From Catajapyx aquilonaris (Eukaryota): 64,000 bases of DNA. The stretch lies in assembly GCA_000934665.2 (NCBI GenBank), contig KZ538011.1:62001-126000 (forward strand), given 5' to 3'. Each line of letters starts with the position of its first letter. The first letter of the stretch is position 1. The notes under the pieces were generated by a model, which did no database searches, was not told where the DNA came from, and saw only the letters and a list, made by a program, of their open reading frames with translations. Of the stretch, positions 3,001 through 64,000 are shown piece after piece. Made by a program: the position numbers and the translations under genes.

Positions 3001-5650
3001 TGTGTTTTTTAAGTAGTCTAGCATGATCCCCTTTCGAATTTTATTTCCCTGAACGATGAGCGCAGATATAGAGTCCTCATGAATGCTGAGCTGGAGCAGA
3101 AGGTTTTAATCACGTTTAATCCCGGTGTCCGGCTGCCTACCAAATGGGCTTCCTGAACCGGATCCGCTGGGGGATCCATCCAGAGCATGCGTTGCTATAT
3201 ACTGTAACCAGTTCTGGGTCGAAACGGGAAATAATTTTGGAGTCACAATTACCTGACTGGGCCCACACTGCCCTCCAGTGCTGGGATGGAACTACAGAAA
3301 ACTATATTTTCACGCAGATTGTTGCCCGCCGGATATGCAGGTTTTTTAAAAAAGTTGCTGTACACACGGGAATACACCACTGGTTTCAACCTAAAACTGC
3401 AAAAAAATGATTGCAATTTCACTGGAGAAATAAAGTTGGCCAAAATATGTGCCTGTATGCCAAAATAGTTCAAATGTCACACAACGTTTAGCCACTTCCC
3501 CATGTATCTGCGTCATCTGCGGACAACCGCAAATCATACCGCAGGCATTACTTGCCCGGACTTATTGCATTATTCCCGGCCGTAATTGAAAATAGCATAA
3601 TGCTGCGCTTTGTGGACGGGCTTAACAATGTAATGCGATGCGGAGAGGCGAATTACACATTTATTTACATTTTTTTGTTGAGCGCAGCAGACCCCAACTT
3701 GAGCTAAATTGGCCCCCGCACCAGCAAAGGCTGCTTTGTGTCCGTGGCACTGTAAATACATGAAACGGCTTAAATACGTCACCAGAACCTCAGTGCAAAT
3801 CTGACACGTTGCATGTTGCTCGGTTGCGTTTTCCAAGCCCATTTCCATTAAGTCATGGCGCAATAATCGCCATATCTCAACAATGAGCCCCCCCATCCTA
3901 ACAGCCCCATGTATAACGTACAAATCCGGAGGCCCCCACGAAATGATGCTGATAGGATTTTAACCGCGGACAAATTAGGCCATAACTCAAAAACTCATAT
4001 ATCCCCCCCCTTCCACAACCTTGTCCCGGGCGAGCTGTCTCCCTGGAAGCGGGGCGATGTCTGCTAGAACAAATGAATTTTTGAGCCTTGAACTTTGTCT
4101 TTGCTCCGCCGTTTTATCTGTCCCGCCATTCTCCGGGGCCTATCCGAGTGATTGATGTCGTTAAGCTATTGACAAGACTCTTTAACGACGGGGCACGTAG
4201 CCAGTTGTCTTATGGATTAATAAAAAAGCCATGCCTGCGCGCGGAGAAGCCTTCAAAAGTATACACCCAGAAAAGGACAAAAATATGTGACCAGCACGGC
4301 TTATCTTTCGAAACATGTAAGGACGTCAACTATGTATGGCCTTTCCAGCACAATTTGATAGCTTGTGACGTTCCCCTCGTTTTGTCGTCACCCATGACCC
4401 GGTTGGTCTCTATAGGCACTTGTAGAAGGTACTAGAGTCGGTTGGGAATCCAGGCTCATCGATCAGGGTCTCCTGTTGCCGCAAAGAGCCGTAAAATCTA
4501 GTGAAGGATGAACGTGGGTGTGGGGGAGGTGAGAAGAGAGGAAAAGTGCGATCGCTCCAGAGTTTACCTTGGGAAAGAGGAATCAGCTTTGTTATAGGCC
4601 TATACCTGAAGTGTCGAGAGAATTGCAGTTATGTAACCCTCAAGTCTCGGCGCAATCTTGTCTCTCACTGTCTCTGATGTTGGAGAGCGCAGAGGAACTT
4701 TACGATTCTCAGGACACACACACACACACTGCAGGTGCTTTGCCGCTGGGGGTAACATGATCTAAATCAGCTTGCAGTACTGGTTGATTAAAAATGGCCC
4801 ACCGAAACTCAAGGTTGTAATGTCAAGACAGATACTGGCATGGGTCTTGTTATCCGTACAGAGCAGATAAGCAGTTTAGTGTAATGCGGATTGTATTATA
4901 TTTGTTCAGACCCCGCCTCCCCCTATAGCGTGATTAAGTTTTAGTGCGAAACATGTTTTCGCAATATGAGCACCAGCAAGCTTGAATGAACTTGCCGTCG
5001 CCTCCCGTGCTCCACAAACACATCAATTCCGTCGCACCATTTCTGAAACAAAGTGGACGTAATTGAATTGGACATTATTAGAGAACTGACAACATGCCAT
5101 TCACAATCAAGCTTTTTATAGATTACTCCAATGCGCATTTTGCCCCCGTCGTCAATGGGAAGGCGGAGCTTGTGATTTGCATTAATTTCGCTGCCGGACG
5201 AAAGACGGCATTTTACTGTTCCGGGAGCTAAATATGTCATGCCCCGAGGAGCTCTATCGGAAGTTCGGAACACAGCCATGTTCATCTCCCCAGGGAGTAA
5301 TTAGCCATTTTTTTTTGCCCAAGCTTTGAATACCGTGTGTTTCAGAATTAAGCTCACATCGCCAGAAATGGTGACTCAGGACACGACAAGTGGAGCTAAA
5401 TATATTATGAAACGCAAGGTTTAATGAGTGTTAATAAAACAGGGTAGTGCTTTCAAACACGCTTAATATTTGGCCATCCTCATTTTTCTATTTAACAATT
5501 GCCAAGTGAAAGTCTTTGATGCATTCCTTTCATCTAACACGATGGAAGTTATTGCAGCTTGCGGCTTTCTGTGTGTACCCGTGATGGTTTGTAAACTTTC
5601 AAGAGTCAATTTAAGTGGGGTTTTTTCGTGGTTCCATCCGAGCGCCTCTT

Positions 5651-7456
5651 TTAGTCTCCTTCTTCAACTCCATCGTCGTCATCTATGGACTCGACCATGT
5701 ACGGGCAGCTTGAGACATGGTTGTAATTTTGCGACTTGATGTCCTCCTTCTCCGCCTCCCTGTGGTAATAGTAGGTCAAGTTGAACACGACCACTGCGGT
5801 AGTGATCGCCACGATCAGCACACCAGTCACGGTGCACAGGGTAGCATTCAAAATCCCCCAGAATCCGACTGGGTTGTACGGGATCGGTGACCCCAGGGTG
5901 GTCAAGGTCACCACTGCCCACTCGATGGCGTGACTGATGGACATGTAGCAGGCTTCCAAAGTCTCAGTTACCCCGTCTTCTGCCAGCACCGTCGCTACTC
6001 CATTCACGTCGCAGTCTCGCGTCTCGGTGAAGAACGCGCCGGTGGCAAAGAACAGGACACCCCCCAGGTAGAGGAAGAACACCAGGCTCAGCTGGGTGGC
6101 CGACGACCTCAGCGCCTTCCCGATAATCTTCAGGTTCTTGGCGTGTCCGGTCAGCTTCAGCACCCGGAATATTCGGAGGAGCCTGATCGCCCTGAAGACG
6201 GTCAGGAACATGGCCCAGTTGGCGCTCCTGTCCGTTGGAGTAGGCGGAGACAGAGGCTTGGTCACCAGCAGCTCCTCCTTCTCGGCCACCACCATGCCCA
6301 AGGTCACCAGGTAAGGAATGGTCGCCAGCAGGTCCACCAGGTTGAACACGCTTTTGAAGAAGGCGAACTTGTCCGGACATGACAGGAAGCGGACCACCAG
6401 TTCGAAGGTGAACCACGACATGCACATGGTCTCCATCAGGAAGAACGGGTCTGGAACCGGCATATTCTCGTTCGACTTGACTTGTCGTGCGGACTCCGGC
6501 CGTGTGGAATTCGGCGATGGGGACTCCGGCTGTGTGGACCTTCTGTAACGGTTGTATTTAGGATGCGTCTCCATGACGAAGATGCAGATTGAAAGGATAA
6601 TGATGACCATTGAGATGATGGCCAGCAAGCGTGCGTGGATCGAGCTCTCCGGATACTCGAACAGGATCCAGACCCTCCTTTGAAGCTCGTTGGAAGGCAG
6701 CGGCTTGTCCTCATCCTCCAGCACCCCTTCGTCTTCCCTGAACCTGTTCATGGCCAACTCACCAAGCTCGAAGAACTTGACCTCGTCCGAGAAGACGTCC
6801 AGAGGCACGTTGTTCGGACGACGCAGCCTTCCTCCACTCTGGTAGTAATACAGGACGGACTTGAAGCTGTCCTGGTGCCTGTCGAAATAATACTCGTCCT
6901 CGTCCGGATCGTAGTACCGGATCCTTCTAGCTGGATCGCCCAGAAGGGTGTCCGGAAACTGGTTCAGAGTCCGAAGCTGCGTCTCGAATCGGAGTCCGCT
7001 TACGTTGATCACAACACGATCGCAAAAGTCGTGGTCGTGCGGGATTATGTGGTCAGATCCGGAGGTTAACGGGCCTTCTTCCGTCTCCTCCTCTTCGTCC
7101 TCGTCCTCCTGCATCCTCAGTGTTCTACCTGCGTCTGTCACAGACAAGATGGCCCTCATCATGGGCGTCATCCTTATAGTGCTTCTTGGCCCTTTACGTG
7201 TTCGAAGACCCAGAGCCCTCTCCACCTCTCGCCTCCCACCTAAAATTGTGTTAATATTTTATCATCTGACACTGACAAATAATTGACATTTTCGTCACCA
7301 TTTCTGAGATTTGAATTAATATTGTTTCTCCGATTAAATTAGTTCCTGCTAATATACAGTATTATCAGGTGCTCACATGTTGGATGAAATTCTTATTATT
7401 AGCAGCTACTATATCACATCACAATAAACTTTACCTGCACTGCCGTCTCCCAACAT
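5651..7456 (-). CDS. Divergent Shaker/Kv1-family voltage-gated channel-like protein, about 536 aa; join(7456..7435,7239..5651)
   Basis: The 524-aa ORF carries a Shaker T1 domain (HDHDFCDRVVINVSGLRFETQLRTLNQFPDTLLGDP...YYYQSGGRLRRP), S1-S6, an S4 RAIRLLRIFRVLK and post-S6 YYHRE...QNYNHVSSCPY. An acceptor (aattttag) precedes 7239. A 22-nt upstream exon ATGTTGGGAGACGGCAGTGCAG|gtaaag (7456-7435) is phase 1 and joins in frame. An alternative in-exon ATG lies at 7171. The pore signature is non-canonical, so I do not call it the Sh orthologue. Confidence 0.9.
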
Positions 7457-9191
7457 CTTGCTTTCCCGGGCTTGCACACCTCTCACAGAATGAACAGATG
7501 TTTCTCACTCAGAGGTCATACAGTTGAGATTTTTTCCCCCCAGCTGAGATGAGTGAGGTGAGTAAAGCAATTAGCAGTAATTCGTACCGTCCACTCGATT
7601 CTCGCAAAAGATAAATAAAGGGCAAACAAAAATTGTTTCCATGGAATCGACAATGATCAGAATGTTATTGTCTGATTATGCTTCAATTTTGTTAAATTTT
7701 TTTCTCCCGATATTCGTCAAATCATCATACTTTCAGATTTTCCTGCTGAAGTCTCCAGGTGTGATTTCAGGCCCATCCCAATTTAGAGAAATGAACGACA
7801 CATCTCCCATGGCGGTTCATTTTCCTAAAATTAATTGACACTTCCACGAATGATTGCGAGTGAACTTTTAATGGCTCCTTTCCCACGACATTAAAGCTAA
7901 TGATCCATCACGCTCTGATGTGGGGGTGGAAAGGAAGGCATGGAATATATATATTCTGCGCAGAATCTATGTCACAAAACGAGACATACCTCGTATCTAT
8001 ACGCGATAACGAAGCGGCGGCGGCGGAATAGGGAATCGATTTATTGGATTAATTCCACTGCATCTAAAGCAACGTTAAACGGCAACGTTTTGCCTCCAGG
8101 CTCAGTCTGCAATTTTTTTTGCAAAGATCCAAAGTCCCTTTCTTGCTTGTTGTTGTTGCTGCTGCTGCTATGACGCCGGGGCTGTTTTTGGCACGGCTGG
8201 CATGGTGCGTCTTGGCGCAAAATTGCATTTTGCAAGCGTGGGCTTGAAAAATGGACCGCGATAATCAGGTAGCCCACACCCGATAGGTGCTGGAAGCGGG
8301 TGTGGCCTGCAGCTACAGGCCTTGAAGCTCACTCTTTTTTTTCCCCCCCTCTCTCATCTCAACGTCGCTAAAACCCCACCTACTATAAGGCCAGGCTCGG
8401 AATAAATTAGATTAAGCTAATCCGGCTCGCTCCCTTTACCTGGTGGAAAAGCCAGGTTCAATTGAGCATTAAAGCTTAATCCACAGCCTGGCAGATGACC
8501 AGGTAAAAACTCGCATGCAACTAGAGGTGTTAGCTGAACTGCAAGGTGCAAAAAGAAATGATGGATTCCACCGGAGAGTTGATAAATCGTTAAACTTGAG
8601 CTGACATCTTTTATGGTCTAGCCCCCTTAGCATGTGAAAGTTAGTCGCATTCATCATTCTGAAGGGAAGCGCCTGCGAATTTGCGGCAACACAACCGCAA
8701 TAGACTGCATATACACTCCTTGACATATGGTGCACATCCCTACGGAGACCTGTTCATTTGGTGAAGCTTGTGACACCATGTGGCAACTCCGCCACGTGGT
8801 GGCCGGGAAAGTGGCAACCATGTCGGAGGAGGGGGTTCGCCTTCTTCCCTTTCCCTTCCCCGATATAACATTCCCTTCCCCGCTTTGCGACTGTGCAGGC
8901 GGGCCTGTGGCCAAATACAGTTACATTTATACCTCATCCGGTGTCCGTGTTTGATTGAACCCGTGAGCTAGTACGGAGCCAGGGACCCCGCAGGTGGGGG
9001 TTCCTGACAAGCTTCAAGTATAAGGTGTCGTAATGATCATGCATGACCCATAATATGATGCCATAGAATTATTTTATGCAAATATTTGGGCTCAAAAGTC
9101 GCGTTACTGAAATTATTAGCATACGATGGTGTATCAATAACCTTTTCAGCGATTTTTAAATGATACCTACAAAAACCGCTAAGAGCATCAC

Positions 9192-9241: not shown

Positions 9242-12200
9242 AAAATTTATTGATGCTCCATTGGAGACTCACCATCTATGCTCTTTGAATGTTTTGCAGT
9301 TTACACACACTGTAGGCATAGTATACATTTTTAAATAAAATAATGTGTTAAACAGGTCTTATGAAAGAGCCAAACAGAAACTGAAGGCGAACTTGTGCCA
9401 CTGGTGCTAAACACATTGTATTTTTGTGAATAGCCTTCAGTCAAAGTCAGAGTCATGCCTTCTGGATTTTTTGTCCAGATATGGGTTGACACGTTAAGGT
9501 CATGGCGATAAAACTGGTGGCCCCCATTAATAAAAAAGGAGAGCTGGCGGTTTTTGCAGGTTTATCGTTTGTGGTGTATATGTCTGGCTCCATCCGCATG
9601 AAAAATCGCGAGTGTCCAGTGATGGCTTCACCGAGGCCTCATCCCCTATTGGCCCCTTTTATGTGGACTGCCATTAGTAATCCGGCTTCGACTACACGCG
9701 CTGGGTCATGATTCACAGGCACCTTTGGCTCTGTGGGCTTCTGCAGCGTCGATCATTTGGTCTAGCCACCTGCCTAATGCGTTTTAGATCGCATCCGCCA
9801 CATTTTCCGGATCTAGAGGAATGGGGGAATGCTGCATTCTTTTCCTGCACAGGGTGTGTCGCAATTTCAGGTCAGATTGTCCTCAATTGTGCGGTTGGAT
9901 CACCTGGAGTTGTAATACGCGTAGGATGCCATTAGAGGCACAGGTTGTAAGTGCTCCTGTGCGTGTGCTCGTAATCGCAAAGGGCTCATTTGCATGAGGG
10001 TATTGTGGGACTTATTATACTCACATTGGAGCACCGCAGGGAGGATACGGGGCCTTTGTGAATTTTTATTATTATAATATGCGAGGGAAAACTGCTGCCG
10101 TCTAATACACGGTGCATGACTTGTTGGAATAGCCGGACCTAATTAGCAGTTCAGGAAGTTGGGCCGTTAGCTGCTGTATTACATAAGAGTATGAAGCGGG
10201 GCCTGGAACACTGAGCAAGCGTAATTACCTGGTACCGACGACATCAATTGCACGAGTAATTATTGTAAAGTGGCCAACTCCTGAACGTTTTTCACGATAG
10301 TTTGCCAGCGGCCTTGTTCATTAGGTTGTTCAGCAAGGGACAAAAGGACGCACGAGTTTCAAGACCTTTTTTTTCCAACACTGACGCACTCTGATTAATT
10401 AGCATTAAAGTAGCCACTTGGATGTGGCCAATGTCGCAACATCCCAAGCGACACATGTCTGAACACTCGGTCGGAAATGACAAAGGTTTCTCTCTCTGTC
10501 ATTGTAAAACGAGCTCAGTATGTCACATCAATTCTGGTACAACATGCGGCGAACATACAATTGATATTTTTTGAATATTTATAATAATTGGCGCATTTCA
10601 ATGCCTATTTGCTATTTGCGATAAGGTTTTTAGCTGTCGGTCGCAATGAATTAATGCTAAGTGCAAACCATGGTTTGATATTACGCACTTGTAAAGGTGC
10701 ATCAGAGCCTAAGAGTGTCTGTAACATTTTCCAGCATTCTGTACTTCAAACCCGGTGTGTACCTCCAAACCAGGGATCTGGTATATCAAACAAGAGCTGA
10801 AATTCAGCGCCGGAGCGTGATCTTTCAGAGGACTCTGCTTGGGTCAGCTTAAACCTCAGTGGACACCGCAGGCGACACTGCCAAAAGCTTACTCTCAGCA
10901 TTACTCTGATGAGAAGAGGCCAGAAGCTGTGTGTGCATTCGCTGTACTTGCGTTGGATGAATGAGATAACGTGGTTAGAGGGAGCTGCAAATGTAACTAA
11001 CCGTGAACAAAACCGATCCTTCAGTGATACAGTATCAGAACGTGCGGCTACAACATTTTGCAAGGATCTATTATTGTTATAATGGCAAAGTTCATTTTCA
11101 CACGGCTATAATTGCTGGCAGGTGTGTTTACTCTTTTGAGCAGCTCAATTTCATTAAATTTAATGGACAATCAACTTTGAAAAGGCTCGTGTTTGGAAAA
11201 AAAAACTTGCAGTATTGTTAGGAAGTGTTTGCGCTTTGCATAAACGAATTGGTCAGCTGCTGTTACAAGGCCGGCGTTTGGTACAGAGAGCCTTTAGGCC
11301 ATTATTTCTATTTTGGCGCAAATTGCGATTAAAATCAACCAACCGCACTCTTTTTAATAACAGGTCCAATTTGTCACTGATATGTTCACTGTCTTGCACA
11401 TAACAGCACAATTGTCCATTGTTAGCTCAGTTTAACAAGCCTGCTGGATGGCCCAATTCGTCGCAACCTGTTCATGCAGATACGCGTAATAAAAGAGACT
11501 GATTTTTTCCCCCACAGGCGCAAATATTTTGCAGCCAATCACAGGAGCTCTGCAATTATTTAAACAGCTCGGGAAACGTCACTTCGAAATGAGTATGGTT
11601 GGCAGGCTACTTGTCCAATATGTGGGCTGGTTACATTGTTACCTTTCCCCAAAGGCTGGTTCCACTAATAAGGTTAAACAAAACCGCACAGCTGTATTTT
11701 TTTCCCCGCTTTCTCCTCACCCACAAAAAAAGTTCAAATAGGATTAGAGTTCAACATGGACCATTGTATATGGCTCATTACACTCATTAATTTGTACCTC
11801 GGACCCATTAGGTATTGCTGACAATCCGCCTTTGGAGTGGTTTGTTGGAAACTCAGGGTCGGTGATGGAGCGCAGGTGGAAAAATGCGGGCGGTAATTCC
11901 GATTGAGTCCCTCTGTGTTTCTATTGGAAGAGAGAGAGAGAAAAAAGAGATTCTTTTTCTCTCTCTTTCTCTTTGTCTCTATTCGAAGCCGCATTGGAAA
12001 CGGGCCGTTCTCATCATCATCAGCAACAAAAATTGGCGATTCTGACCACGAGTTCCCAAGATAAGCAGTTCCGGAGGGGGGGGGGGGNGGGGGGGGGGGA
12101 AAGCCTGAGACCATTTTGGACACGTCCGGCAGGCTCCTGCCTTGTTAGCTGAATAGAATCGAGGGTCGGATTTCCCAGAGTCGGAAGGTGCAATTGAATG

Positions 12201-34000: not shown

Positions 34001-37000
34001 CGGCATGAGCCACTTTTTGTCGGGGTGGCGTTGGACACATATATAGGAGAAGGTGATGCCTCTCTCCCAGTGCAGTTTGGCACATACAGTCGGTGGAACC
34101 ACACACGCTTCCAGGAGTGAGGTAGGAATGTTTTTTCATCAGAAGAATTAAGGCAGAGCTTGTAGAGGCAGCTGAATTTTCCTACGTTCTTGTTTTCTTT
34201 CTTTTTCAGCTGCGACCTAGTTTGTATACAACGTGAATAATAGTGCTTTGGTCAAATGAGTGGGAATTCAAATGACACTGACGAACAACCAGTAGTAATT
34301 GACAAATCTGCATTTTACAAGAAACTTGATGCGTACTACGTGGAGAAGCCGAAGAAGCAACCACCCTCGAGGGAAAAAATGGAGACCATGAAGAGGGAAA
34401 TCATCGATGCTAAGGAAAAGAGGTAAGTTTATTTGCGTTTCATCCAAATTGTTATACTTGCCCAACACCAGTGTAGTTCGCCCACCCACAAAAATGGACA
34501 GGTTGGGCAATAAACAAAATGCGATAAAAATCACCGTTAAGATTTTAATATCTGGACTTTAAAATAAGTAACACTATGCAACAAAATTTGACTTTTTTGT
34601 CCATGTAAATTAATATTCGTGTTCCTTAGGTCACAAGTAACTCATAATGGGCATTCATTTTGTCTTTGATTTGTTTTTTTACCTCGGGGCAGGCAAAAAA
34701 CCAAAGTCCTCAAATATAGCAGTTATTTCCCAATCAAGCTGGCCTAAATGTTGCTAAACCATCTCGGATTTTTCTGAAAATAACCACAGCTGTACACACC
34801 TATGCCGTAACACTGAATATCACGTTTCAGCCAAATTGCGAAATACCGTGGGGAGGGAAAAATTGCGAAGATTTGAAAATGGGTCCTTTTTTGGATATTT
34901 TTTTTTGGTTATTGAAAGTGGTCAAGACCCAATCAACATATACATCAAATTAAAGAGACACTCGAGTAGAAGGCGTCTATGGATTTTTTTCTGTAAAATG
35001 CACTCAGAAAAGCATGTGTGGCATTCCATCTGTCACATGCTCAGTAACATGTCCAAGTGTTTTTTGACCCATAAAAAATGTAATATGTTCAGTTTCAATC
35101 CTGGGTCATGCATGGTTCGCGAGAAAATATTATATAATAATAATAATAAATAATAATAATAATAATAATTGTGGGGGTAGTGCTCACCCTCAGGGTATCT
35201 GCACGAACCTTTATTATTTTATTATTTTTAGTACAAATTGTACATCGAAACCTTTAACGAAGCGCCCGGGCCCACGGGCAGGATGACAGGAGGGGATGTG
35301 CAAAGTGCAGTGCAATGTCTGATCCGTGGTCGTTTTGTGAATTCCCTCGGGTGGTTAGTCTAAGGAGCCACCCAAGACGAAGCCAGAGACGACCGCTCAA
35401 CTCTGCACGAGATGAAGGGGGGTGTCCCCGGGCTGGGATATTATATATTATGTTTTCCTAATTACCAGTAATTTTAATGGAGCCATATTCTTGGACATGT
35501 GACTGATGAAATGTCACACATGTTTTCTGAATGCATTTTCCAGAAACACAAATTCCATAGACGCCTTCTACTCGCGTGCCTCTTTAATTTGATGTAATTA
35601 CGTATATGTTGATTGGGTCTTGACCACTTCCAAGAACCGAAAAAAAAATCCAAAAAAGGGCCCATTTTCAAAATTTTGCGATTTTTCCCCCTCCCCACAG
35701 TATTTCGCAATTTGGTTGAAACGTGATATGCCGTGTTACGGCACCCCCTACATTTTCGACTTGTTTTGGCCCAAGGAATACGCTGAGGGCCGCTGGCTGG
35801 ACTAGTAACAAACACCCTGCTATGGTTGATTGATTATACACCTTTTCTCTCGTTGCAGAGGGACAAAGACTAGAAGAGAATATCATCTCCTGAAAACGTA
35901 CAATACCTTGACAATAGGCAAAACGTCGCACCTGATCAAGAAGACCGGCAACGTTAATGATATCGAATATTTAGTGCCGTACGAGGACATTTACGACTCC
36001 ATTTATGACTGTCACGTAAACAAAACAGGGCATGGAGGGCGAGGGAAGATGGAGAGGTACTTCATGAAAAAATTCAGCATACCACGACCAGCACTCTTGA
36101 TTTTCCTGTCGTGCTGCCGCTCGTGCAACAAAAAGAGGTATTCTTCAAGAAAATGTGTGATTCGGCCAGTTCTGTCGAACGACTTTGGTGACCGGGGTCA
36201 AGTTGACCTGATCGACTTCCGGTCTATGCCAGATCGCGATTTTAAGTGGATTTTGAACTACCAAGATCATGCTACCAAGTTTGTTGTTCTTCGACCACTC
36301 AGATCGAAGCGTGCTCTGGAGGTTGCTGAGGAACTTCTTCAAATATTTCTTCTTGTTGGAGCTCCAAGGATATTGCATAGCGATAATGGGAGGGAATTCG
36401 TCAGCCAAGTGATCCAGGTCTTGCACGACATGTGGCCGGAGGCAATCATGGTACATGGACGACCAAGGCATCCCAAAAGTCAAGGGAGCATCGAAACCAA
36501 CCAGGACGTGGTAAATATGCTGCGAGCTTGGATGACCGACACAGGCAGTAAGAAATGGTCTGCAGGCCTCAGTTTTGTACAGTGGCAAAAGAATAGCTCC
36601 TACAACCGCATTATTGGACGGTCACCATACAAAGCAGTGTATGGTTATGATCCAAAACTCGGACTCGCTTCCACTACATTGCCTCTCTCCATGTCACGGA
36701 GTCTGGAAACTGAAGAAGATTTGCGAAGTGTCCAACAAGTAGCTGACGAAGATGTTGACGGTGATATGGAAGACAAAGGCTATGAACAAGAAGAGGGAGA
36801 TCATGATTTTAACGACAGTACCGTCATGGAGGTTCATGACGAACATGAAAGTGCAAGTGCAAATATATTCGAGTGTGCCACAACCACAGAAGACGAAGGA
36901 AGGGTATGCTGCGCTTGTTCCCTGGCAATCAATGATCCTGAATTTGAATGTGAGTCATGCAAGCAACCCTGTCATTTCTCATGCAAGTTGTCATCAAGTT

Positions 37001-40000
37001 CCAGCGACGTGCGTCTGCTGTGCGCTCTGTGCACGCACGCAGACAAAATTCAAGAAATTAAAGAGGACTACGAATGAAAATAATTGCAACAGACAAAATG
37101 TTGAAGGCCTCCACTACAGAGCTGTCAGTTAGGGAGGCCATGAGGAAAAGCTCCTGGGGGCAAGGATTCCTCAAATGTGAATGCAGGCCGCCCACCAAGC
37201 AGTGTGCAACAAGGAGATGTGTCTGTAAGAAGGCAGGACGTCAATGCAATAGCAGGTGCCATGATAGTCTGGCATGCGTGAACAAGTAGGGAACATTTCG
37301 GTTGGAAAGGTTACTAAGTGAGGAAAGACATGATATCTGCTGTACAACTTAACAAATGTTCGATGAAATAAATACCATTTTCTTTTCTGACTAAGCGCAA
37401 TGCATTATGCTTCTCCTTCCACCGACTGCATGTGCCTACATGTGTCCAACGCCACCCTGAACACTTCGCGAAGTGTTTAATGTCTACTGGACATATGCTG
37501 AATTACGGCATCAGTCCAACCCGTTGCTGACACTTCTCAAACAGTCCAATAGTTCTATAGGTACATGCTGTAATTATTCACGGGAGATTGCACGTGTCCA
37601 ATATGTGGGTTGACTACTAGACATTTCAGAAAGTGTTCAATTTCGATACGCGGCTACGACATTCCCTTTTGCAACACATCGCATTGTATTCAAATATTAT
37701 GAGACAAAGGCAGCGTTCAAAGGAATTGAGAGCCAATCAGATAAAACGAGTCTCCGATAATCTTCAAACATGTTTTTTTTAAAGGCCCCTCGACACTACA
37801 ACCCTCTTCGAATACTGGTAGACAAAGTAGCTTTGTCGTCTTAAACAATCCCATTCTACTCTCTCCCTTTTTTTTGTCTTTCTGACATCCACGGATTCAG
37901 ACTAACAATCTCCATGCTCCTTTCGTCTCTAATTAGTTTTGACAAAACTTCAACCCTGGGAACCATTCCCTTCCCCTGTGTCCCTCCCTCCCCCTCCAAA
38001 CCCCTAATTACATTAGGAAAGGTAAGACCGGATTTCTTTTCCCTTGAAGTAAGGACGTAGATGTTTGGCCCAGAAAGAAAGCGGAAGGTAATTGGATCAA
38101 GGCACTTTGTACAGGTGCAAAGAGCNNNNNNNNNNCCCCCCCAGAATTATTTGCGTCGGAATCCTCCCTGGCTAATAAGGAAGTCTCGGGTTCATTTATA
38201 TAATTATCTGCTTCTGAATACACTCGGCACAGAGATGGATTCTACGTGTACAAGTATTTTCATGCTTAAAGGACATTTTTGAACTTTACAAATTATTGCG
38301 AAAAAACTGATCATTTCAAACTTCGTTTAATGAATTAAAAGATATTTCGGCCACACAGCACATCTCTAAGCTTGTTACTAGCATCATATGCTATACCTAC
38401 TCGTACAAGATGTTTATATCCGGATGAAATCACCCACACTTACGGATATTATGTGCCTGCAGCAGTCATATGAAATATACTGAATATCTGTGAACCTATG
38501 TCTCTATATATGATTTCAACTTCATGTTTGTAAATTGAACCCTTGTTTCAGAGCGAATTGGAGAAAATGATATTCCAGAAGGCATCTAAGAGGATAGTGG
38601 AACAGCCCAAGGCTTTATGCAGGAGAGAGGTAAGCAATGCTATTCTTGAATTCACTCGGAGCATAGAAATCAAGGTGCCTTAAAACCCAATCCGAATAAC
38701 ACACTGTCGGAGTGACTTTCATGGAGTCGTCTGATATTTATAGTGTTTGGCAATAATGAAGAAAAGGGTTGGGAGAGCAAAAAAAAAGAAGGGGCTCTTC
38801 AGCGATCGGATTTTCACAAAAGGCTGGCTCAAAGTGTAGTCTGTTGATGGAGTTGTAAAGAGCTTTACTGGGCCTAGAAAGCGAAGAGCATTTGAGTGCT
38901 ACGGATAATGATTATGCTGTCAATCCATCTCTCTCCAATGCCTCTCTCAATATGGCCTCGTTCTATTCATTTTCAGAGCAAGACTGTTAGCATAGAAGAC
39001 ATTTTTAAGCAGCAGGTACGTCGCTCGGACATTGCAATATTGTTTGCATACGACCCCTACATGTTCTGTGTGACTTGCAGGGAACTCAATTTCGAATGGT
39101 TTTCGAGATGAGGCCTCAAGATGCAACAGGCGTAGTGCACCGTCCCACAATGGCCGAAGTGGATGTCTCGCCATTGACCAAAGTGGCCAAATACGTGGCC
39201 GCCACAAGTGAGGTCAGTCACCGAAACCGTGTCAAAAATGGCAAATGCTTATGATTTCTGCCACCATATTGTCAGATCCTGAACATTGGCGATGTGGCAG
39301 CTTGGATGAGGGAGCGTCTTCCTCCATTGCTGGTCGGACAAAGCGGGTCTCCAGAGCCAGAAGACGGCGTCAGGCCTTTGGTGGAGATGGTGATGGCCCA
39401 AAAGGCTGCTGCCAGAAGTCTCCTATCCCTTCCGATCTACAACGGTCAGAGGCAGATCATAGGCGTGACCCAGCTTTTGAACAAGGTTGGCCACAGGTTT
39501 TAATAATAACAACATGCGGTCGTTGCAAGCCCGCAACCAAGAGTCGTGTTTGATTGGGATGTCATAGTGGGCTGATTGAGCTTTGATGCATGTTGACTGC
39601 CCTATATTGCATCAAAGGGCATGGTAAAATGGTCTCCCCCCGAGTTTTTATATACTTCTACCGCAATGTGACTGTGTGTATCTGAACCGCCGAGAGAGAA
39701 GAGGAAATTGGGCTGAGCTTGTCAAGAAGCTTTCTTTTTTTTGAGGAGGGCCCGAAAGCAAAATGTCGAAACGTGCTTGGCAACAAGCCATTACCTTGTT
39801 TCTGCTCTACTCCCCCAGGCCAATGGCCAACCTTTCACCGACAGTGACGTCAGCACCTTCGAGGCCTTTGCCATCTTCTGCGGACTCGGGATCCACAACA
39901 CTCAGCTCTACGAGAGTGCATGTGAGCACCCATTTTGGTCCATTTGTAGAGAGCGAGGGAGGCAAATAGAAAAGCTTATTTGAGGCAAAACCTTGGCTGT

Positions 40001-50485: not shown

Positions 50486-53400
50486 TTAGAAATCGCTGGG
50501 GCACTCCAGTGGATTGAAGTCTCCAAAAACGTTGAGTTCGTACATGCTGGCGAAGGCCATGAAGATGAGATACCAGAGCATGAGGATGACGCCGTATTTT
50601 CTGTCCAGCTTCCATCCGTTCATGTGGGTGGCTATGAGGAGGAAGGCCACGGTTGACAGAAGCGAGAAGGTTGAGTACACCAGACCTGAACGCACAAAAA
50701 GGAAAAAAAAAATATTAATGGTGGCTCACTTTTTCTGTTTGTTCAAAGGCGCATGTATATACTGTAAGCAAATTGTTAAAAAAGAATGAAGCAGAACATA
50801 AGTGCTTGACAAGTACTTGTTGGGACTTGACACTGTACTGTACCTTTGCTTATCACATTGACACTGCTGCCTGGGTCGGTGATGACCGTTCGGAGGAACC
50901 ATGGTAGGCCGAGGCACACGAGGATGTCGAAGACGTTGCTTCCGACAGCGTTGGACACGGCCATGTCCCCGTAGCCCTCCTTCACCACTGCTAAGCTGGT
51001 TAGTGCATCCGGGACGCTCACTCCCGCCGCCACGAACGTCAGTCCCATCATGGTGTCAGGGAAACCCAGAGAGAAACCTGCAACAACACACAATCATGAG
51101 TTTCCATGTTGATCCAGTCACCGCACTGAAACCTACCAATGATGGTGATCATCCAGACCATGATGTACGAGAAGAGCGAGATCCAGACGAGGGACATGAT
51201 GAAGGTGGCCACGTACCAGCTTCTCCACCTCTCTTGCCTGCAATCCGGCACAGTGTAGGTGGAAGAGGCCACCAGTGGCAGCAGCAGGGCCCACACCACC
51301 CTCTTTCGCATGTCCTCTGGAACCTGGAAGATGTCCTCCTGCTCAGGAGGCGGCTTGGATGTCTTTGGCTGCTGCTGTTGCTGGGTCGCAGGAGGAGGAG
51401 GTCTCTCCGGAGGACCTGTCTCGTTGACATTCGCGGCTGAAAGGCGGCAGCAGATTTAGATAAGAGACCGCATCGGCCGGGGTGGACTCACCCAGCAAGA
51501 AGGTGATGGTGACTCACGTGTGACTCCGTCATGTTCCGTCTTCTCCGCTGTGTACATGACCGGGTTGGGCTGCTGCTGCTGCTGGGAGCCTTCCTCGTCG
51601 TCCAGGTGCTTGTAAGACACCAGGGCAGAGTCCTCTCCGTCTTGGGGACGCTTGCAGGGCACAGGGAGGGTCTGGGCCCAGGCCTCCAGCTTGGCGTTGA
51701 AGCACATCATCACGCAGTACAACACGTAGAACAGCAGGAGGATTATGGACTCGTACCTGACAAAAGGAAATTGTCAAACTGTGTTTTAAAACGCCAGTAA
51801 CTTGCTCTGAATAAGAGCAGTTCAAAATTTAGAGCTCCGATATCCGTTTTGATTTATTTCAAATTGGGCGAATAATCCCATGATGTAAGTTCGCTTGACC
51901 ATCAGAACATCCACCATGCATCATTCACCGCAATAAGCTCAGGAATCGCCAGAATTGAGCGAAGAGTATATGACTGTGGGGAGGCGGAAAAATTGTCCTG
52001 GCATATCGATAGGCAGGTCCGATTTCTTTTTAAAATTTCGACAGATGAAGACTGGCAGGTGTATGCATTGGCTAGGTCATCCTCTACCTCACTTTTGGGA
52101 GCATTGTTAGTCATGTCCAACTAGCTGACTCGGAGGCAAAAAAAAGTGCGCCCAAAATTATACTGTACTACTAACAGCCATCCTTCATCCTGACTCTGAA
52201 GAGCCACCCACCAGTCACCGGTGTGCAAATGAAAGTCTGCCTTCCAGGATAAAAGAACAGTAAGGCAACTTGAAGGGATTTTCGGAGGAACATACTCCAT
52301 AAGTTTCATAGCACCCGAGAATGTGGCCCAGGTTTGTTAGAGTGCTCAAGAAAATTGTTTCGCAGCATAGGTCAGGGCAATATCGAAGTAACACGGGAAA
52401 TACTCTCACTGGACAGCCACCATTACTGTACAATTTCTGCTTGTCACCTAACAAGAGGCACCTCTGGGGATGTTGGTACAGTGCTTGCTTGACAAATCAT
52501 CCCGGTTGGAACTGCCAGACCCACCATTTTCAATCAGTCACACAATAGCCTACATGAGCTTCAAGTTTGCACAAGTGGGACCTGACGTCATTCACGAGAC
52601 TGACAATATTGAAGCGTCGCAAAGTTTGAAAGGGAAGCACTGGAAAGACAGTCCCTTGGGCTGTGGACAGTGCACCGAAGCCTGGATGTTACCACTCACC
52701 ATTCAATCTTCTCATCATAGATGGTGCCTAAGAGCGCCAGGATGCTGATCATGTAGAAGAAGCAATCCCTGACCATTGGCCACCAGTTCAGATAGCAGAC
52801 GCTCCCGGCGAACAGAGCACAGATGCTGATCACAAACATGATGTTAAACACGGCCGACCCGATCACTCCGCTGATGCCAATGTCGTCCTAGAAAATTCAC
52901 ACACACAAAAATTTGACAACACCACCAAAAAAACATGTTCTATTATATTTAAAAAATAGAACAGGCTGGATCTAATTCCGGGCTAGTGCAAACCCACCCA
53001 TGCGACCAATTTGCATGATTCCGATCCCGAATTGATTTGCTAATTGCGGTCTCCATACCCGACGCACACCCAGGTCGCGCTAATAACCCCCCCCCCCTTC
53101 CCACCCACACAAAACCCAATTCAGGATGGGGGTAGGCTTCACAACCAAGCACTTTGCCCAAGTTGGCGCCAGTAATCGATCTGTCTGGCACTTCCCATCT
53201 CGATTAATGATTGATCACCCCTCATCTTCCCTTTCACATCTATATAGATCTCTCATTTCTAAAATGGTTCCAACCTAACCTTCCTAACAGTCAGGTAAGC
53301 CAAACCCTAACCTAAAGTTTGTTCGATCAACCCTTTTGTATTGGTTAACAGCGCGGTGTTGCCTGATTTATTGATTTTCCCTCTTACCTGGTAACCGACT

Positions 53401-61300: not shown

Positions 61301-63461
61301 TGGACGGCAGAGTTGACAAGTGACCGTGTGAATGAACCGTTTGTCTTTGAGCGTATATTGCTGGCGTGACGAGTAACGGCGGCAAAAGAGCGAATCGAAA
61401 GTTGCCGTCAGTATGACCTCCTTCACTTGATCATAAATATTGGCTGCCATCGGATAGTGGCGCCAGCAGTACGACATCATTAATGTCCCACTACCAAAAA
61501 AATACAACAGTCCGTCGTCCGTGTGAATATATGCGTTTCTACCTGCTGCGGATTGTCCTTTTTTTTCTGATATCGCGTGCCTTTGCGTGTCATTCGATCG
61601 AGATTGATGTCGTGATTCGGTCTCGTCTAGACGTTTTGGTGCCACTACTGACACACTATTATGCGTCATTTGGCCATTGGAAAATCTTTGGGTTGGAGGA
61701 TATTGGGCGACGTTAAGGGAATGACAGGGTTCCATGCTGGTGAAGTTTGAGTGTAAGTGCTCATTCCCCATGATGGATTAAGCTGTAACACGAAGAGTTT
61801 TAGGATTATGCTGGTTTTGATGATGCCTGGCCGTCATTGCTGCTGTATAAATTGCTGGCAGATGCCGTTACGGTATTGTTACATATCAAAATTTGCAGTA
61901 ATTACTCGCCGGATTTGAATTTAATTCCACCGCGACAATAGGTTCGCAGGCTGTGTGCGACTGAAAATGGCGGGTTTGTTGGATTTGTAATGAGCCGTGT
62001 GAACAAAGCGGTCTCTAATTGATGTGAATATTTATTTTCGTTGTAAATCGGATATTTCAACCTCTTTGAATTCAGTAGTAGAATGATACATTACACGAAA
62101 GTTTACATATATTTGACACATCTCGCAGCTACTTACGTACAGTACAAAAGCAATTTGAGGAAAATCATTACTTAAGGCCAAGTATATTCACAAAAATGGC
62201 AGATATTCTCATTCGCGTCCATATGCCACAGGCCTTTTGTCGTGCAGTGTAAACTTGACAACTCACGCTATAGTGGGCATTGATAAATTAATTGCAGTCA
62301 GACTGAAGTTAAATTAATTAAATATGCAATGAAAATGTACCTGATTAATAATACAACGCAACGGTCTAAAAATGCACAACTCTAATTAGCACAAGTCCTT
62401 CGAAGGCACACAAATGCGCATACGATCTTAGGCATGTAATTAACTATTAAACTACTCGTAGAGTACCAGAAGGGTGTATCAATAAATTAACTTCCGTACG
62501 TAGGATTAAAAGGACCAAATGAGGCATTATTTATTAATTAATTCAGCTGACCTTTTGCTATACGTTTGTAACCTATTACTCAAACTGAATTATTTTGTCA
62601 TCCCTTTCAACAAGGTAAGAAAGTATAATATTAACATTCACAGTTTAAATAATTTTCTAACATATTATTGAAACCCCTGTAAATTTGATCAAATTGGAGA
62701 GCCAGGATCTGCAATTTGTGTGTCATAAAATTATAAGCTTTTGCGCTCTGTTGACATGTTCTTTCATGACTATTTGTTCTCATGACTTTTGCATTGATAT
62801 AATGACACGAGACCATAATACGAACTTCCCACTGAATTTAATTTCTGCAATAATAATTATGAATAATACTGTCCAAAATTTACAGTCCTGGTCCATATTT
62901 AAATTAAATTATTCAGTAGTCAATTTAACCCAAACTATTAATAGCTGGCCTAATTATGCAAAAATTCGGCGAAATCGCAATGTTTACTTAATCTAAATGA
63001 AGTGCCAAAACCTTATATCAAAACCGTCTAAACATCACACGCCTTTAATTGGTCAAACTGCTGCAGGGCACGTAATTAAACACACACTCACAAACACCAT
63101 CAACTCCCCGCTCCGCTACCTGACTTAAGAGCCACGCAAAAAAATAAACCATCCTCTCCATTGCTAATTAACTTACACCCCCTCCTTCTTTTCCCGAAAA
63201 ACCAAATTACAACATTCGCCGCATTATTTTAAAAAAATATGTCCAACGTCTCGGATCCACCTCCGGTAATCGAATTACTTGATTCGATAACGAGTCCTGC
63301 TGTAAATATTCTTCACTCTCTCTCTCTCTCTCGAGAGAGAGAGAGACACTGCTGGTTATACAGACTTGATGGAGACATCGTTTGGCTAAATGGAGCCGGC
63401 TACGTAATGGAGAGGCATGCACACTACAGCACCACCCTTTAACCTACACTGCCCCCCCCCC

Positions 63462-63586
63462 NNNNNNNNNNNNNNNNNNNNNNNNNNNNNNNNNNNNNNN
63501 NNNNNNNNNNNNNNNNNNNNNNNNNNNNNNNNNNNNNNNNNNNNNNNNNNNNNNNNNNNNNNNNNNNNNNNNNNNNNNNNNNNNNN
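63462..63586. other. Assembly gap (N run) next to a poly-C tract; a smaller gap lies at 38126-38135
   Basis: Runs of N in the sequence. Confidence 0.99.
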
Positions 63587-64000
63587 ACCCTGCTAGAAGG
63601 CAAGAAATCCTGTTGGAAACGGGCTGGTTTTTTGATGTAGAAAGTTGTGTTTAAAAAATCACGGTGAAAAAAAAATAGGGGGGGGGGGGGTTAAGGATGG
63701 CGGCAGATGTGTAAATTTTTTGGAGAGAGTAAAAAAAAGGGGGAGGTAATGTAGGCTTAATGGAGCGGTGGTAATGTGCCGACTCCTTCAAGACGCCAAT
63801 CATTTCCCCATGGGAGGGAGAGGATGGAGACTGCTAAAACATCTCTTGATCGATCCCTTAGCAAAGAGCATGGGAGGAAAACCGCACTAGAATTCGCGAT
63901 GAGGAAGAGGAACCACCCAGGAGTTTGGAGGAAACTATACTGGAGGAAGCACAAACGATGAAAAGAAGAAAAAAATGAAGGAGCGGTATCGGGAGTGCAG

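Follow-up and report, generated by a model that had tools for sequence, protein, structure and literature searches.

A probable Shaker retrocopy with a rewritten pore, a candidate regulatory Kv1 subunit, in Catajapyx aquilonaris

A 64,000-nucleotide stretch of Catajapyx aquilonaris DNA (the window, in what follows) carries on its minus strand a Shaker (Kv1) paralogue that appears to have been maintained as a gene although its pore is no longer that of a canonical K+ channel. Our preferred reading, to which we lend slightly less than even belief, is that it encodes a T1-competent, pore-dead regulatory subunit that would join the tetramers of canonical Shaker; we infer both the co-assembly and the effect on the current. 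A spliced Shaker transcript would have given rise to a lineage-restricted retrocopy, which would then have been kept as a protein-coding gene. Through its conserved T1 ring the subunit would enter tetramers with canonical Shaker encoded elsewhere in the genome, and the presence of a pore-dead subunit in such mixed tetramers would lower or alter the Shaker current. The protein would thus be a natural dominant-negative, or 'silent', subunit, one step beyond the known examples. To the broader proposal, that a small retroposed Shaker-derived family (at least two genes in the same genome) was recruited as subunits without a K+ filter but with T1 and a working sensor, we give an even chance.

Results

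The frame of the Shaker copy runs from stop to stop for 535 codons (5651-7258, minus strand) with zero stops or frameshifts. It is the longest open reading frame in the 64-kb window, the runner-up having 415 aa, and a run of 535 codons would escape a stop with a probability of 6e-12 at the window's stop frequency (0.047 per codon). A first-pass annotation of this DNA had described an uninterrupted ORF of about 536 aa. The long open frame stands (506 aa from the first ATG, or 535 codons), but the frame meets nine stops from 7456 to 7259, so that a 536-aa product requires a putative 22-nt first exon at 7456-7435, joined across a GT..AG intron (7434-7240) to an exon beginning at 7239. The gene model is as follows.

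5651..7171, minus strand: main ORF of the Shaker/Kv1 paralogue; 506 aa counted from the first ATG, stop codon included in the coordinates
7172..7239, minus strand: in-frame extension 5' of the first ATG, open to 7258; would be coding in transcripts that include the putative 5' exon
7240..7434, minus strand: putative 195-nt intron (donor CAG/GTAAAG, acceptor TTTTAG/), containing in-frame stops; model read from sequence
7435..7456, minus strand: putative first coding exon, 22 nt, with the ATG at 7456-7454; read from sequence

Logan contigs from three DNA runs, which represent one sample, probably the assembly's own source, and are therefore of limited independence, reproduced 5500-6962 and 6935-7600 with 0 differences. 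The contig covering 5500-6962, filter included, had 0 indels and a single-copy depth of 21-32. The contigs break at 6935-6962, within T1 and far from the pore, where identical words are common to paralogues. The first-pass annotation named raw reads with a canonical GYG as a refuting outcome; the contigs of the DNA runs carry the rewritten filter exactly as assembled. A compensated frameshift was rejected as the source of the odd filter because blastx of the remaining two sense frames gave no collinear similarity (best E 1.0). Rfam gave 0 matches over the whole 64-kb window. For 5500-7600 no match was listed among RNA runs, which is uninformative either way. One run of unknown kind (X5) showed a match confined to a 34-nt acidic low-complexity stretch.

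The solved structures closest to the predicted protein were Drosophila Shaker (7.8e-156) and Kv1.2 (2.3e-123), and the named proteins among the best 120 database matches were all Shaker or Kv1, with 42-53% identity. The folds closest to the AF2 model were those of Kv1.2 and Kv1.3 (E 3.7e-28). Phylogenetic analysis united the Shaker copy and 14 canonical arthropod Shakers in a single clade (support 85/83), and a 40-row tree grouped it with Kv1/Shaker sequences at an SH-aLRT of 94. Its end branch measured 2.37 versus 0.05-0.17 for the canonical rows, about 30 times longer, and the AU test gave p=0.39 for a position inside versus beside the canonical arthropod Shakers.

No orthologue was found among proteins of near-equal length (best 53% identity) or among shorter proteins (best 70%, in T1 only). 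The pore module, compared with 1.84 billion representatives, also returned no orthologue (best E 3e-26, identity at most 52%); no similar protein was found in 5.8 billion protein clusters, and 0 of the 180 pattern matches in JGI metagenome loci were confirmed. In the ESM Atlas, the pore part matched only generic Ion_trans clusters (0.91). A krill paralogue, P0382, was rejected as an orthologue, being only 43% identical to the Shaker copy and having an intact GYG.

The earlier suggestion that this is a maintained gene was borne out: replacement of 117 of the 312 residues invariant in canonical Shakers has left the frame unbroken. When neutral decay was simulated to a comparable divergence (195/312 invariant residues retained), about 7.5 new stops arose and none of 400 simulations kept the frame open. 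The indels relative to canonical Shaker, about six, are all in frame. The GC3 of the ORF is 0.765 and that of the pore module 0.79, with a flank GC of 0.45, and codon usage correlates with that of Pde6-like exons (RSCU r=0.80; their GC3, 0.737). Because GC3 is as high in the pore module as elsewhere, the module is probably still translated sequence under some constraint. Taken together, the open frame, the in-frame indels, the GC3, the uneven conservation and the retention of sensor residues require long purifying selection. A processed pseudogene was rejected for the lack of any stop or frameshift in 535 codons, the unevenness of conservation (p=1.6e-8) and the intact codon bias.

Pfam recognized BTB_2/T1 at aa 53-143 (4e-27) and Ion_trans at aa 181-471 (1.2e-29). 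The domains of the predicted protein were mapped as follows.

6722..7033, minus strand: T1 tetramerisation domain, aa 47-150; best-conserved part, 68/77 canonical-invariant residues; AF2 pLDDT 91-95
6137..6637, minus strand: voltage-sensor domain S1-S4, aa 179-345; 10/11 key charged/aromatic residues intact; R6 = Gly342
6486..6539, minus strand: 15-nt tandem repeat, in frame, 3.6 copies; S1-S2 loop longer, N-x-T sequon (N221) retained
6017..6136, minus strand: S4-S5 linker and S5, aa 346-385; strong divergence, invariant residues 6/17 and 6/17
5942..6016, minus strand: turret, aa 386-410; insert of about 18 residues between Cys387 and Cys408; pLDDT <50
5903..5941, minus strand: pore helix, aa 411-423; AIEW for AFWW, W434 equivalent = Glu417
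5873..5902, minus strand: former selectivity filter, aa 424-433; TTLGSPIPYN for TTVGYG-DMT
5762..5872, minus strand: S6, aa 434-470; gate hexamer at 5786-5803 = TTAVVV for PVPVIV
5690..5761, minus strand: post-S6 segment HRE..SQN.NHV.SCPY; 11/15 invariant residues present
5651..5689, minus strand: short acidic tail and stop codon, without the canonical C-terminal ETDV

Residue retention was scored at the columns that are invariant in 14 canonical arthropod Shakers. T1 keeps 68 of 77 such residues versus 127 of 235 in the rest of the protein (p=1.6e-8), and its identity to the canonical majority residue is 82%; 17 T1 residues are unique to the Shaker copy, one of them a charge reversal at position 104. 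In S4, the charges R1-R4 and K5 are retained, as had been noted before, and so is K7; the equivalent of R6 (R377) is Gly342, a replacement absent from the earlier description. The acids of S2 and S3 and F290 are intact. Overall, 10 of the 11 key voltage-sensor residues, whose roles we take to be as assigned in Shaker, are intact (p=0.012 against a background of 0.54).

The helices that carry these residues fared unevenly, with 13/21 invariant residues retained in S1, 12/14 in S2, 8/14 in S3 and 13/25 in S4. The first-pass description of T1 and S1-S4 as well conserved therefore applies to T1 and to the charged residues of S1-S4, but not to S1-S4 otherwise. Its statement that the changes are concentrated in the pore did not survive: the voltage-sensor helices retain 46/74 and the pore module 33/72 (Fisher p=0.067), and it is T1 that is the outlier. 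A divergence of the pore only is too narrow a description because the entire transmembrane part is fast-evolving, including the S4-S5 linker (6/17) and S5 (6/17), beside which S1 and S3 have also been rewritten.

In the alignment to Shaker, the three motifs of the pore (filter, pore helix and S6) are altered just as first claimed. The filter GYGD has become GSPIP, with one residue inserted (filter codons 5902-5873). S6 reads AITTAVVV for the canonical ALPVPVIV, so that both hinge prolines are absent and the gate hexamer differs from PVPVIV at 4 of 6 positions. Eight of 20 key pore residues are intact. The pore helix, with 7/11 invariant residues present, is still recognisable, and S5 and S6 are of full length and strongly hydrophobic. 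The Pfam domain Ion_trans_2 (PF07885) found no match in the Shaker copy and is present in the krill paralogue and in all 120 homologues listed; GYG occurs in every filter-covering sequence among 269 fetched relatives. In the AF2 model, S6 is a single unbroken helix (437-484) and the rewritten filter has a pLDDT <50. The earlier view that this is not a canonical K+ pore is upheld by the loss of filter, pore helix and gate residues. Judged by their residues, the S4-S5 linker, pore helix, filter and S6 gate cannot build a canonical K+-selective voltage-gated pore.

Where exons begin and end in canonical arthropod Shaker can be read from 88 near-canonical genomic ORF fragments of other arthropods, of which 54 begin just past GYGDM, 28 end in LPGTLG, 6 end in LIFFLFIG and 3 begin with REDEGF. 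The ORF of the Shaker copy is unbroken across all four inferred borders and across the donor after ..VVIN. Its continuity over at least five canonical Shaker intron positions makes a retrocopy the most likely origin. Next to it lies a Pde6-like gene in no fewer than 15 exon pieces whose catalytic exons are 78-97% identical to those of hexapods, so a general shortage of introns or a fast rate of evolution does not mark this genome as a whole. As for scars of retroposition, only an A9 tract near 5315 (about 340 nt past the stop) was found, with no target-site duplication or flanking direct repeat. The absence of poly(A) and target-site scars is expected of an old insertion. These weak hallmarks nonetheless count against a retrocopy origin, as does the putative 5' intron, which may exist.

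A 4.9-kb contig from the same DNA runs, of similar depth, matches only 6999-7046 of the window. In its upstream flank, read by eye, the canonical QYTGSGHFEP precedes IPHDHDF; past ..VVIN the contig diverges, at a donor resembling GTAAGT. This T1 exon of canonical type, which is separate and borders on a splice donor, agrees with the first-pass view that the window holds a Shaker paralogue and not the canonical gene. A canonical intron-bearing Shaker, of which one T1 exon is seen, thus probably lies elsewhere in the same genome, and at least one further divergent intron-less Shaker paralogue is probably present too; for both, the evidence consists of 30-letter loose ends and short matched pieces rather than full sequences. 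The intron loss and the second divergent copy had both been missed in the first-pass annotation.

One T1 domain of the Shaker copy was modelled with three canonical mayfly T1 domains in ESMFold2. The model scored 0.88 (best of three controls, 0.00) against a mark that is attained by 51 of 78 solved complexes and by 2 of 108 mismatched pairs; since T1 tetramers have already been solved, this pass of the 3:1 model indicates likeness only, may reflect memory and does not speak for binding. The runs agreed in at least 91% of contacts, with a partner pLDDT of at least 86. The modelled interface comprises 30 residues, and 5 of the 17 copy-unique residues fall there, the charge reversal at position 104 included, which is neither enrichment nor depletion.

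Discussion

Several considerations run against our preferred reading of a pore-dead partner of Shaker. The locus could be silent, and the charges of the voltage sensor would be superfluous in a pure decoy. The GYG filter is in place in the regulatory Kv subunits known so far, and their heteromers conduct (PMC3519636). Moreover, should the T1 of the copy be self-compatible, the copy could just as well form homomers or join the second paralogue in heteromers. For a subunit that would kill any tetramer it joins, the part of the source available to us foresees a likely evolutionary dead end (model 2, PMC6279357). In one alternative the copy builds a separate channel, either as homotetramers or in combination with the second paralogue, and this channel is a voltage-gated one that passes cations without selectivity for K+, or a leak. 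We regard this as unlikely, though it has points in its favour. S5 and S6 are hydrophobic, the pore helix is recognisable (7/11), the pore module looks like translated sequence that is still constrained (GC3 0.79), the sensor charges are retained, and the second paralogue is a possible partner. Shaker mutants with a deleted filter conduct cations non-selectively. A precedent is UNC-58, a K2P channel with an atypical filter that is Na+-permeable according to the accessible part of PMC11513965. The missing hinge prolines of S6 and the S4-S5 linker (6/17), however, make canonical coupling of sensor to gate doubtful, and a Pro in place of the second Gly of GYG together with the inserted residue makes an ordered filter unlikely (AF2 pLDDT <50).

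Less probable again is a non-conducting voltage sensor or scaffold that would signal to, or organise, partners via S1-S4 or via its cytoplasmic domains (T1 and the post-S6 segment). The best-kept parts of the protein are T1 (68/77), S2 (12/14), the S4 charges (10/11 key residues) and the post-S6 segment (11/15), and non-conducting roles of Kv2, discussed as ancient in bilaterians in the accessible part of 10.1101/2025.09.21.677649, count for this explanation. On the other hand, S5-S6 have not been lost but are of full length with hydrophobic helices. The C-terminal ETDV end, which binds scaffold proteins, is absent, and no partner is known. Equally improbable in our estimate is a non-functional relic, that is, a long-selected retrocopy, now unexpressed or newly released, whose frame stays open by inertia. 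The lack of an orthologue in any collection searched, the empty RNA listing for 5500-7600, the end branch about 30 times that of canonical Shakers and the loss of all conduction motifs would fit a relic. Only a very recent death, however, is compatible with 0/400 neutral simulations keeping the frame, with indels that are all in frame, with a GC3 of 0.77 versus 0.45 in the flanks, and with a conservation that differs between domains (p=1.6e-8) and favours sensor residues (p=0.012). Finally, we find it scarcely credible that an assembly or sequencing artefact hides a true gene with a normal GYG. The contigs do break at 6935-6962, where words are identical between paralogues, but those of the three runs cover the filter with 0 differences, 0 indels and a depth of 21-32, the single sample limiting their independence.

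If the preferred reading of a pore-dead Shaker partner is true, the 'silent subunit' route can reach a fully pore-dead partner, which is a dead end in the published model; alternatively, a Kv scaffold may have been rebuilt for another ion or for a non-conducting role. Subunits lacking the K+ filter would be a kind of Shaker-family member not described in any animal. The copy would be either a voltage-sensing dominant-negative partner of Shaker or a voltage-gated channel for ions other than K+ under a Cys-bridged turret, and in evolutionary terms a neuronal ion-channel retrogene with a newly acquired function. It would also offer a natural experiment on what a Kv subunit requires if it is only to assemble and to sense voltage.

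The animals known to have regulatory Kv subunits are vertebrates (Kv2 relatives), cnidarians and ctenophores. The first-pass annotation knew of no described arthropod Kv1 subunit like this copy, and our literature search, in which subscription journals were thinly covered, likewise found none. Within the same literature, which included few subscription journals, neither a Shaker-family subunit without GYG nor a Shaker retrogene was found. Insects are stated to lack Kv1 duplications in the accessible portion of 10.1101/2025.09.21.677649.

Compared with canonical arthropod Shaker, the copy shares the T1 (BTB_2) domain and six-transmembrane Ion_trans architecture, the S4 charges, the post-S6 motif and the clade. 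It differs in having no introns at the canonical positions and in its overall identity of about 52%, compared with 87-100% among canonical arthropod Shakers in the transmembrane helices. The filter, W434, the PVP hinge and the S4-S5 linker are rewritten, the turret has gained an 18-residue Cys-bracketed insert, the S1-S2 loop is longer, and the ETDV tail is missing. Krill P0382 (Meganyctiphanes norvegica) is likewise a long-branch arthropod Kv1 copy (end branch 3.78) with an altered gate, PIS for PVP, but it has both GYGDM and Ion_trans_2, which the Shaker copy lacks. The two are 43% identical, below the identity of either to canonical Shaker, suggesting that they probably diverged independently.

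UNC-58 of C. elegans is, like the Shaker copy, a member of a K+ channel family with a naturally altered filter. In that case, as reported in the available part of PMC11513965, one Cys substitution left the filter architecture in place and Na+ conduction was recorded. The Shaker copy, in contrast, belongs to Kv1 and not to K2P, and its function is predicted from sequence.

The defining phenotype of silent Kv subunits is self-incompatibility of T1, that is, the absence of functional homotetramers, and all regulatory Kv subunits known to us keep the GYG filter. The Shaker copy resembles the silent subunits (vertebrate Kv5/6/8/9, cnidarian NvShakR) in being a lineage-specific duplicate with the T1 of its subfamily, a sensor and a degenerate gate. 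The accessible part of PMC6279357 calls degeneration of the PVPVIV gate a universal signature, seen in 42/43 regulatory Kv subunits. Similarly, what is accessible of PMC3519636 describes cnidarian Shaker loci as mostly intron-less (14/18) and known regulatory Kv subunits as forming conducting K+ heteromers. Unlike these subunits, the Shaker copy has lost the filter itself and both hinge prolines, and the destroyed filter argues against K+-conducting heteromers that contain it.

Engineered dominant-negative Kv pore mutants co-assemble with the wild-type partner and suppress its current. As in those mutants (GYG to AAA, Shaker W434F), the assembly domain and the sensor of the Shaker copy are intact and the pore is predicted to be dead. 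The engineered forms, however, were made in the laboratory by one to three changes, whereas the Shaker copy is natural, its pore has been rewritten wholesale, and it bears the signs of long selection.

The Shaker copy combines an intact frame with a rewritten pore

The longest frame in the window (the runner-up has 415 aa) belongs to the Shaker copy, a Shaker (Kv1) paralogue that runs on the minus strand from 7171 to 5651 and encodes 506 aa from its first ATG. Its stop-to-stop frame holds 535 codons (5651-7258). The first-pass annotation had taken 5651-7456 as one open frame; the long frame 5651-7258 stood, but the stretch from 7456 to 7259 contains nine in-frame stops. The 536 aa reported earlier correspond to a putative two-exon model with good-looking splice sites, its exons called from sequence only.

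Putative 5' gene model of the Shaker copy
7456 (ATG), minus: putative first exon, 22 nt
7434-7240, minus: putative intron, 195 nt (donor CAG/GTAAAG, acceptor TTTTAG/)
from 7239, minus: putative second exon

Pfam placed the assembly domain BTB_2 (T1) at aa 53-143 and Ion_trans at aa 181-471; Ion_trans_2, present in a krill paralogue and in all 120 listed homologues, was absent. Alignment to the solved Drosophila Shaker (7.8e-156) and to canonical arthropod Shakers bore out every pore motif named earlier. The filter reads TTLGSPIPYN instead of TTVGYG-DMT, with one extra residue (codons 5902-5873), the pore helix AIEW instead of AFWW, with Glu at the W434 equivalent, and the S6 gate hexamer TTAVVV instead of PVPVIV. 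Changes missing from the earlier list are a turret insert of about 18 residues between Cys387 and Cys408, a longer S1-S2 loop, extended by a 15-nt tandem repeat that stays in frame (6486-6539) and retains an N-x-T sequon, Gly at R6 of S4, and loss of the C-terminal ETDV. Logan contigs from three DNA runs matched 5500-6962 and 6935-7600 with 0 differences; the runs are one sample, probably the source of the assembly itself, so the match rules out an assembly slip and is not independent confirmation.

T1 is protected and the whole membrane part has diverged

We scored the residues retained at columns invariant across 14 canonical Shakers (10 from insects, one from an isopod, two from named copepods, and a copepod-like JGI protein).

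Invariant residues retained by the Shaker copy
T1: 68/77
S1: 13/21
S1-S2 loop: 6/20
S2: 12/14
S3: 8/14
S4: 13/25
S4-S5 linker: 6/17
S5: 6/17
filter: 3/8
S6: 17/33
post-S6 segment: 11/15
total: 195/312

T1 differed from the remainder (p=1.6e-8), whereas the voltage-sensor helices and the pore module differed with p=0.067 only, so that the entire membrane part evolves fast and T1 is protected. The earlier claim that changes are concentrated in the pore was thus not upheld. With numbering checked against sequence P0079, 10 of 11 sensor key residues were retained (p=0.012, background 0.54) and 8 of 20 pore key residues, their roles being those given in the Shaker literature.

Evidence for long purifying selection on the frame

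In simulations of neutral decay with matched composition, sequences decayed to 35% replaced residues carried a mean of 7.5 stops and none of 400 runs stayed open; at 19%, 5 of 400 did. Compared with canonical Shaker, every insertion or deletion has a length divisible by three, and a search for off-frame similarity found no compensated frameshifts. GC3 reaches 0.765 in the frame and 0.79 in its pore module, where the flanks have a GC of 0.45. It agrees with the exons of the neighbouring Pde6-like gene, which have GC3 0.737 and an RSCU correlation with the Shaker copy of r=0.80. Together with the uneven conservation, these data point to long purifying selection on the frame and exclude a long-dead pseudogene. 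These five lines, and 535 codons without stop or frameshift, agree with the earlier proposal of a maintained gene.

The Shaker copy probably arose by retroposition

Every named protein among the best database matches is a Shaker or a Kv1, with 42-53% identity, and nearly all are arthropod Shakers. In a 23-row maximum-likelihood tree the Shaker copy formed a clade with 14 canonical arthropod Shakers (85/83) that excluded the priapulid, flatworm, vertebrate and unnamed sequences. The end branch of the Shaker copy measures 2.37 changes per site and those of the canonical rows 0.05-0.17, and placement within or beside the canonical arthropod Shakers was favoured neither way (AU p=0.39).

We deduced canonical exon borders from database entries that are single exons called on genomic contigs (88 fragments, each with 80% or more identity to mayfly Shaker). 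Immediately past GYGDM 54 fragments start and at REDEGF 3 do, while 28 stop at LPGTLG and 6 at LIFFLFIG; the Shaker copy frame is unbroken across all four borders. Excerpts of Jegla et al. 2012 (PMC3519636) describe the exon organisation of protostome Shaker genes as complex. The Pde6-like gene has at least 15 exon pieces, so the genome is not intron-poor, and its catalytic exons share 78-97% identity with hexapod orthologues, so the lineage is not a fast evolver in general. Retroposition of a spliced mRNA is the best explanation for parental introns being missing en bloc. The scars that such an event should leave were not found around the Shaker copy, where there is just an A9 tract and no target-site duplication, which fits an old event. 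The host, a pancrustacean arthropod, lacks close annotated relatives; the first Pde6 exon reached at best 50-56% identity across most of its length and 70% across half.

Other features of the window
12076-12099: 24-nt G run, directly preceding the first coding exon of Pde6
12454-45200, plus: Pde6-like gene for a cGMP-specific phosphodiesterase, multi-exon, arranged head-to-head with the Shaker copy, whose 5' end is about 5 kb away
35830-37077, plus: 415-codon frame in a Pde6 intron, weakly matching an integrase core (rve, 1.2e-6; 29.1 bits, under the cut-off of 32.6), probably a transposon or retroelement remnant
50776-51093, minus: Na+/Ca2+ exchanger family exon (Pfam Na_Ca_ex, 4.4e-20); the gene probably extends to about 55100, adjoining minus-strand frames looking by eye like more exons
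about 63430-63580: assembly gap (N run), appearing as X in frame 63370-63654

Evidence for other Shaker loci in the same genome

Other loci were sought among contigs of the DNA runs at 80% likeness, and what we say of them draws on short matching stretches and on loose ends of 30 letters. A 4.9-kb contig of similar depth matches the window only at 6999-7046. By eye, its upstream loose end reads QYTGSGHFEP immediately before IPHDHDF, a canonical pancrustacean motif (an isopod protein has NYTGSGNFEP), and downstream it diverges at a GTAAGT-like donor directly following ..VVIN. This canonical-type T1 exon with its donor indicates that an intron-bearing canonical Shaker exists separately.

Two more contigs join those of the window at an identical 28-nt word (6935-6962). 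One is 93% identical across 6935-7045, with upstream sequence of its own. The other has 1 difference across 6920-6962, then 477 letters against the window's 504, then 85% identity (6356-6415), and continues as a divergent S3-like reading. These short pieces represent at least one additional divergent Shaker paralogue, likewise lacking introns from T1 to S3. This second paralogue (runs X1, X2 and X4; window 6356-7046) is less than 80% identical outside 6935-7045, and the common 28-nt word might reflect gene conversion in T1.

Predicted structure

An AlphaFold2 model from a 56-row alignment (mean pLDDT 69.1, pTM 0.53) gave pLDDT 91-95 for T1, 85-93 for S1-S3, only 46-74 from S4 to S6, and below 50 in the turret insert and residues 426-429, the former filter. 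S6 is a single unbroken helix (437-484), as expected without a PVP hinge, and the best fold matches were Kv1.2 and Kv1.3 (E 3.7e-28). One Shaker-copy T1 with three canonical mayfly T1 scored 0.88 in ESMFold2 (best of 3 controls 0.00), a mark that 51 of 78 solved complexes attained, compared with 2 of 108 mismatched pairs; contact agreement between runs was at least 91% and partner pLDDT at least 86. Because T1 tetramers are already solved, this pass indicates likeness and may reflect memory. The Shaker copy has 17 T1 residues found in it only. Five of them, including a charge reversal at position 104, lie on the 30-residue modelled interface, in the same proportion as off it.

A proposed pore-dead regulatory subunit and its rivals

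The K+ signature, the pore-helix tryptophan and the gating hinge are lost, while a strongly constrained Kv1-type T1 and the sensor charge set are kept and a separate canonical Shaker exon is present. Our best reading, held tentatively at a little short of even, is a pore-dead regulatory subunit that enters canonical Shaker tetramers. It would co-assemble through T1, and because each tetramer requires four filter strands, conduction would be silenced or changed.

Two points keep rivals alive: the sensor is preserved although a pure decoy does not need it, and excerpts of PMC6279357 consider a subunit that is self-compatible yet pore-incompatible to be a likely dead end in evolution. That the Shaker copy forms its own channel around a new pore, possibly in partnership with the second paralogue, is an unlikely but serious alternative. 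We give still less weight to a non-conducting sensor or scaffold, and hold a recently silenced relic to be just as improbable, the selection evidence being compatible with very recent silencing.

Comparison with known Kv1 and regulatory subunits

No closer relative was found among protein clusters, shorter proteins, 1.84 billion representatives or JGI metagenome loci, and every filter-covering protein among 269 fetched Kv1-like proteins has GYG. In the literature, most subscription journals lying outside the scope, we found neither a Shaker-family subunit without GYG nor a Shaker retrogene. Insects are stated in 10.1101/2025.09.21.677649 to have no Kv1 duplications. Krill (Meganyctiphanes norvegica) P0382 is a long-branch Kv1 paralogue that retains GYG and has PIS instead of PVP in the S6 gate; divergent Kv1 paralogues thus do occur in crustaceans, and P0382 is a candidate crustacean regulatory Kv1 subunit that appears undescribed. 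P0014 (Tribolium) and P0246, annotated or predicted as Shaker, carry two tandem pore-exon copies (VVLFSS...GYGDM), which look like mutually exclusive alternative exons read through in gene models.

A degenerate S6 gate, described in excerpts of PMC6279357 as a signature of regulatory Kv subunits (42/43), is common to these subunits and the Shaker copy, which we would class as one of this known type, new in being pore-dead and retroposed. Known regulatory subunits form conducting heteromers (PMC3519636, in excerpt), whereas the Shaker copy, as a pore-dead subunit, would go further.
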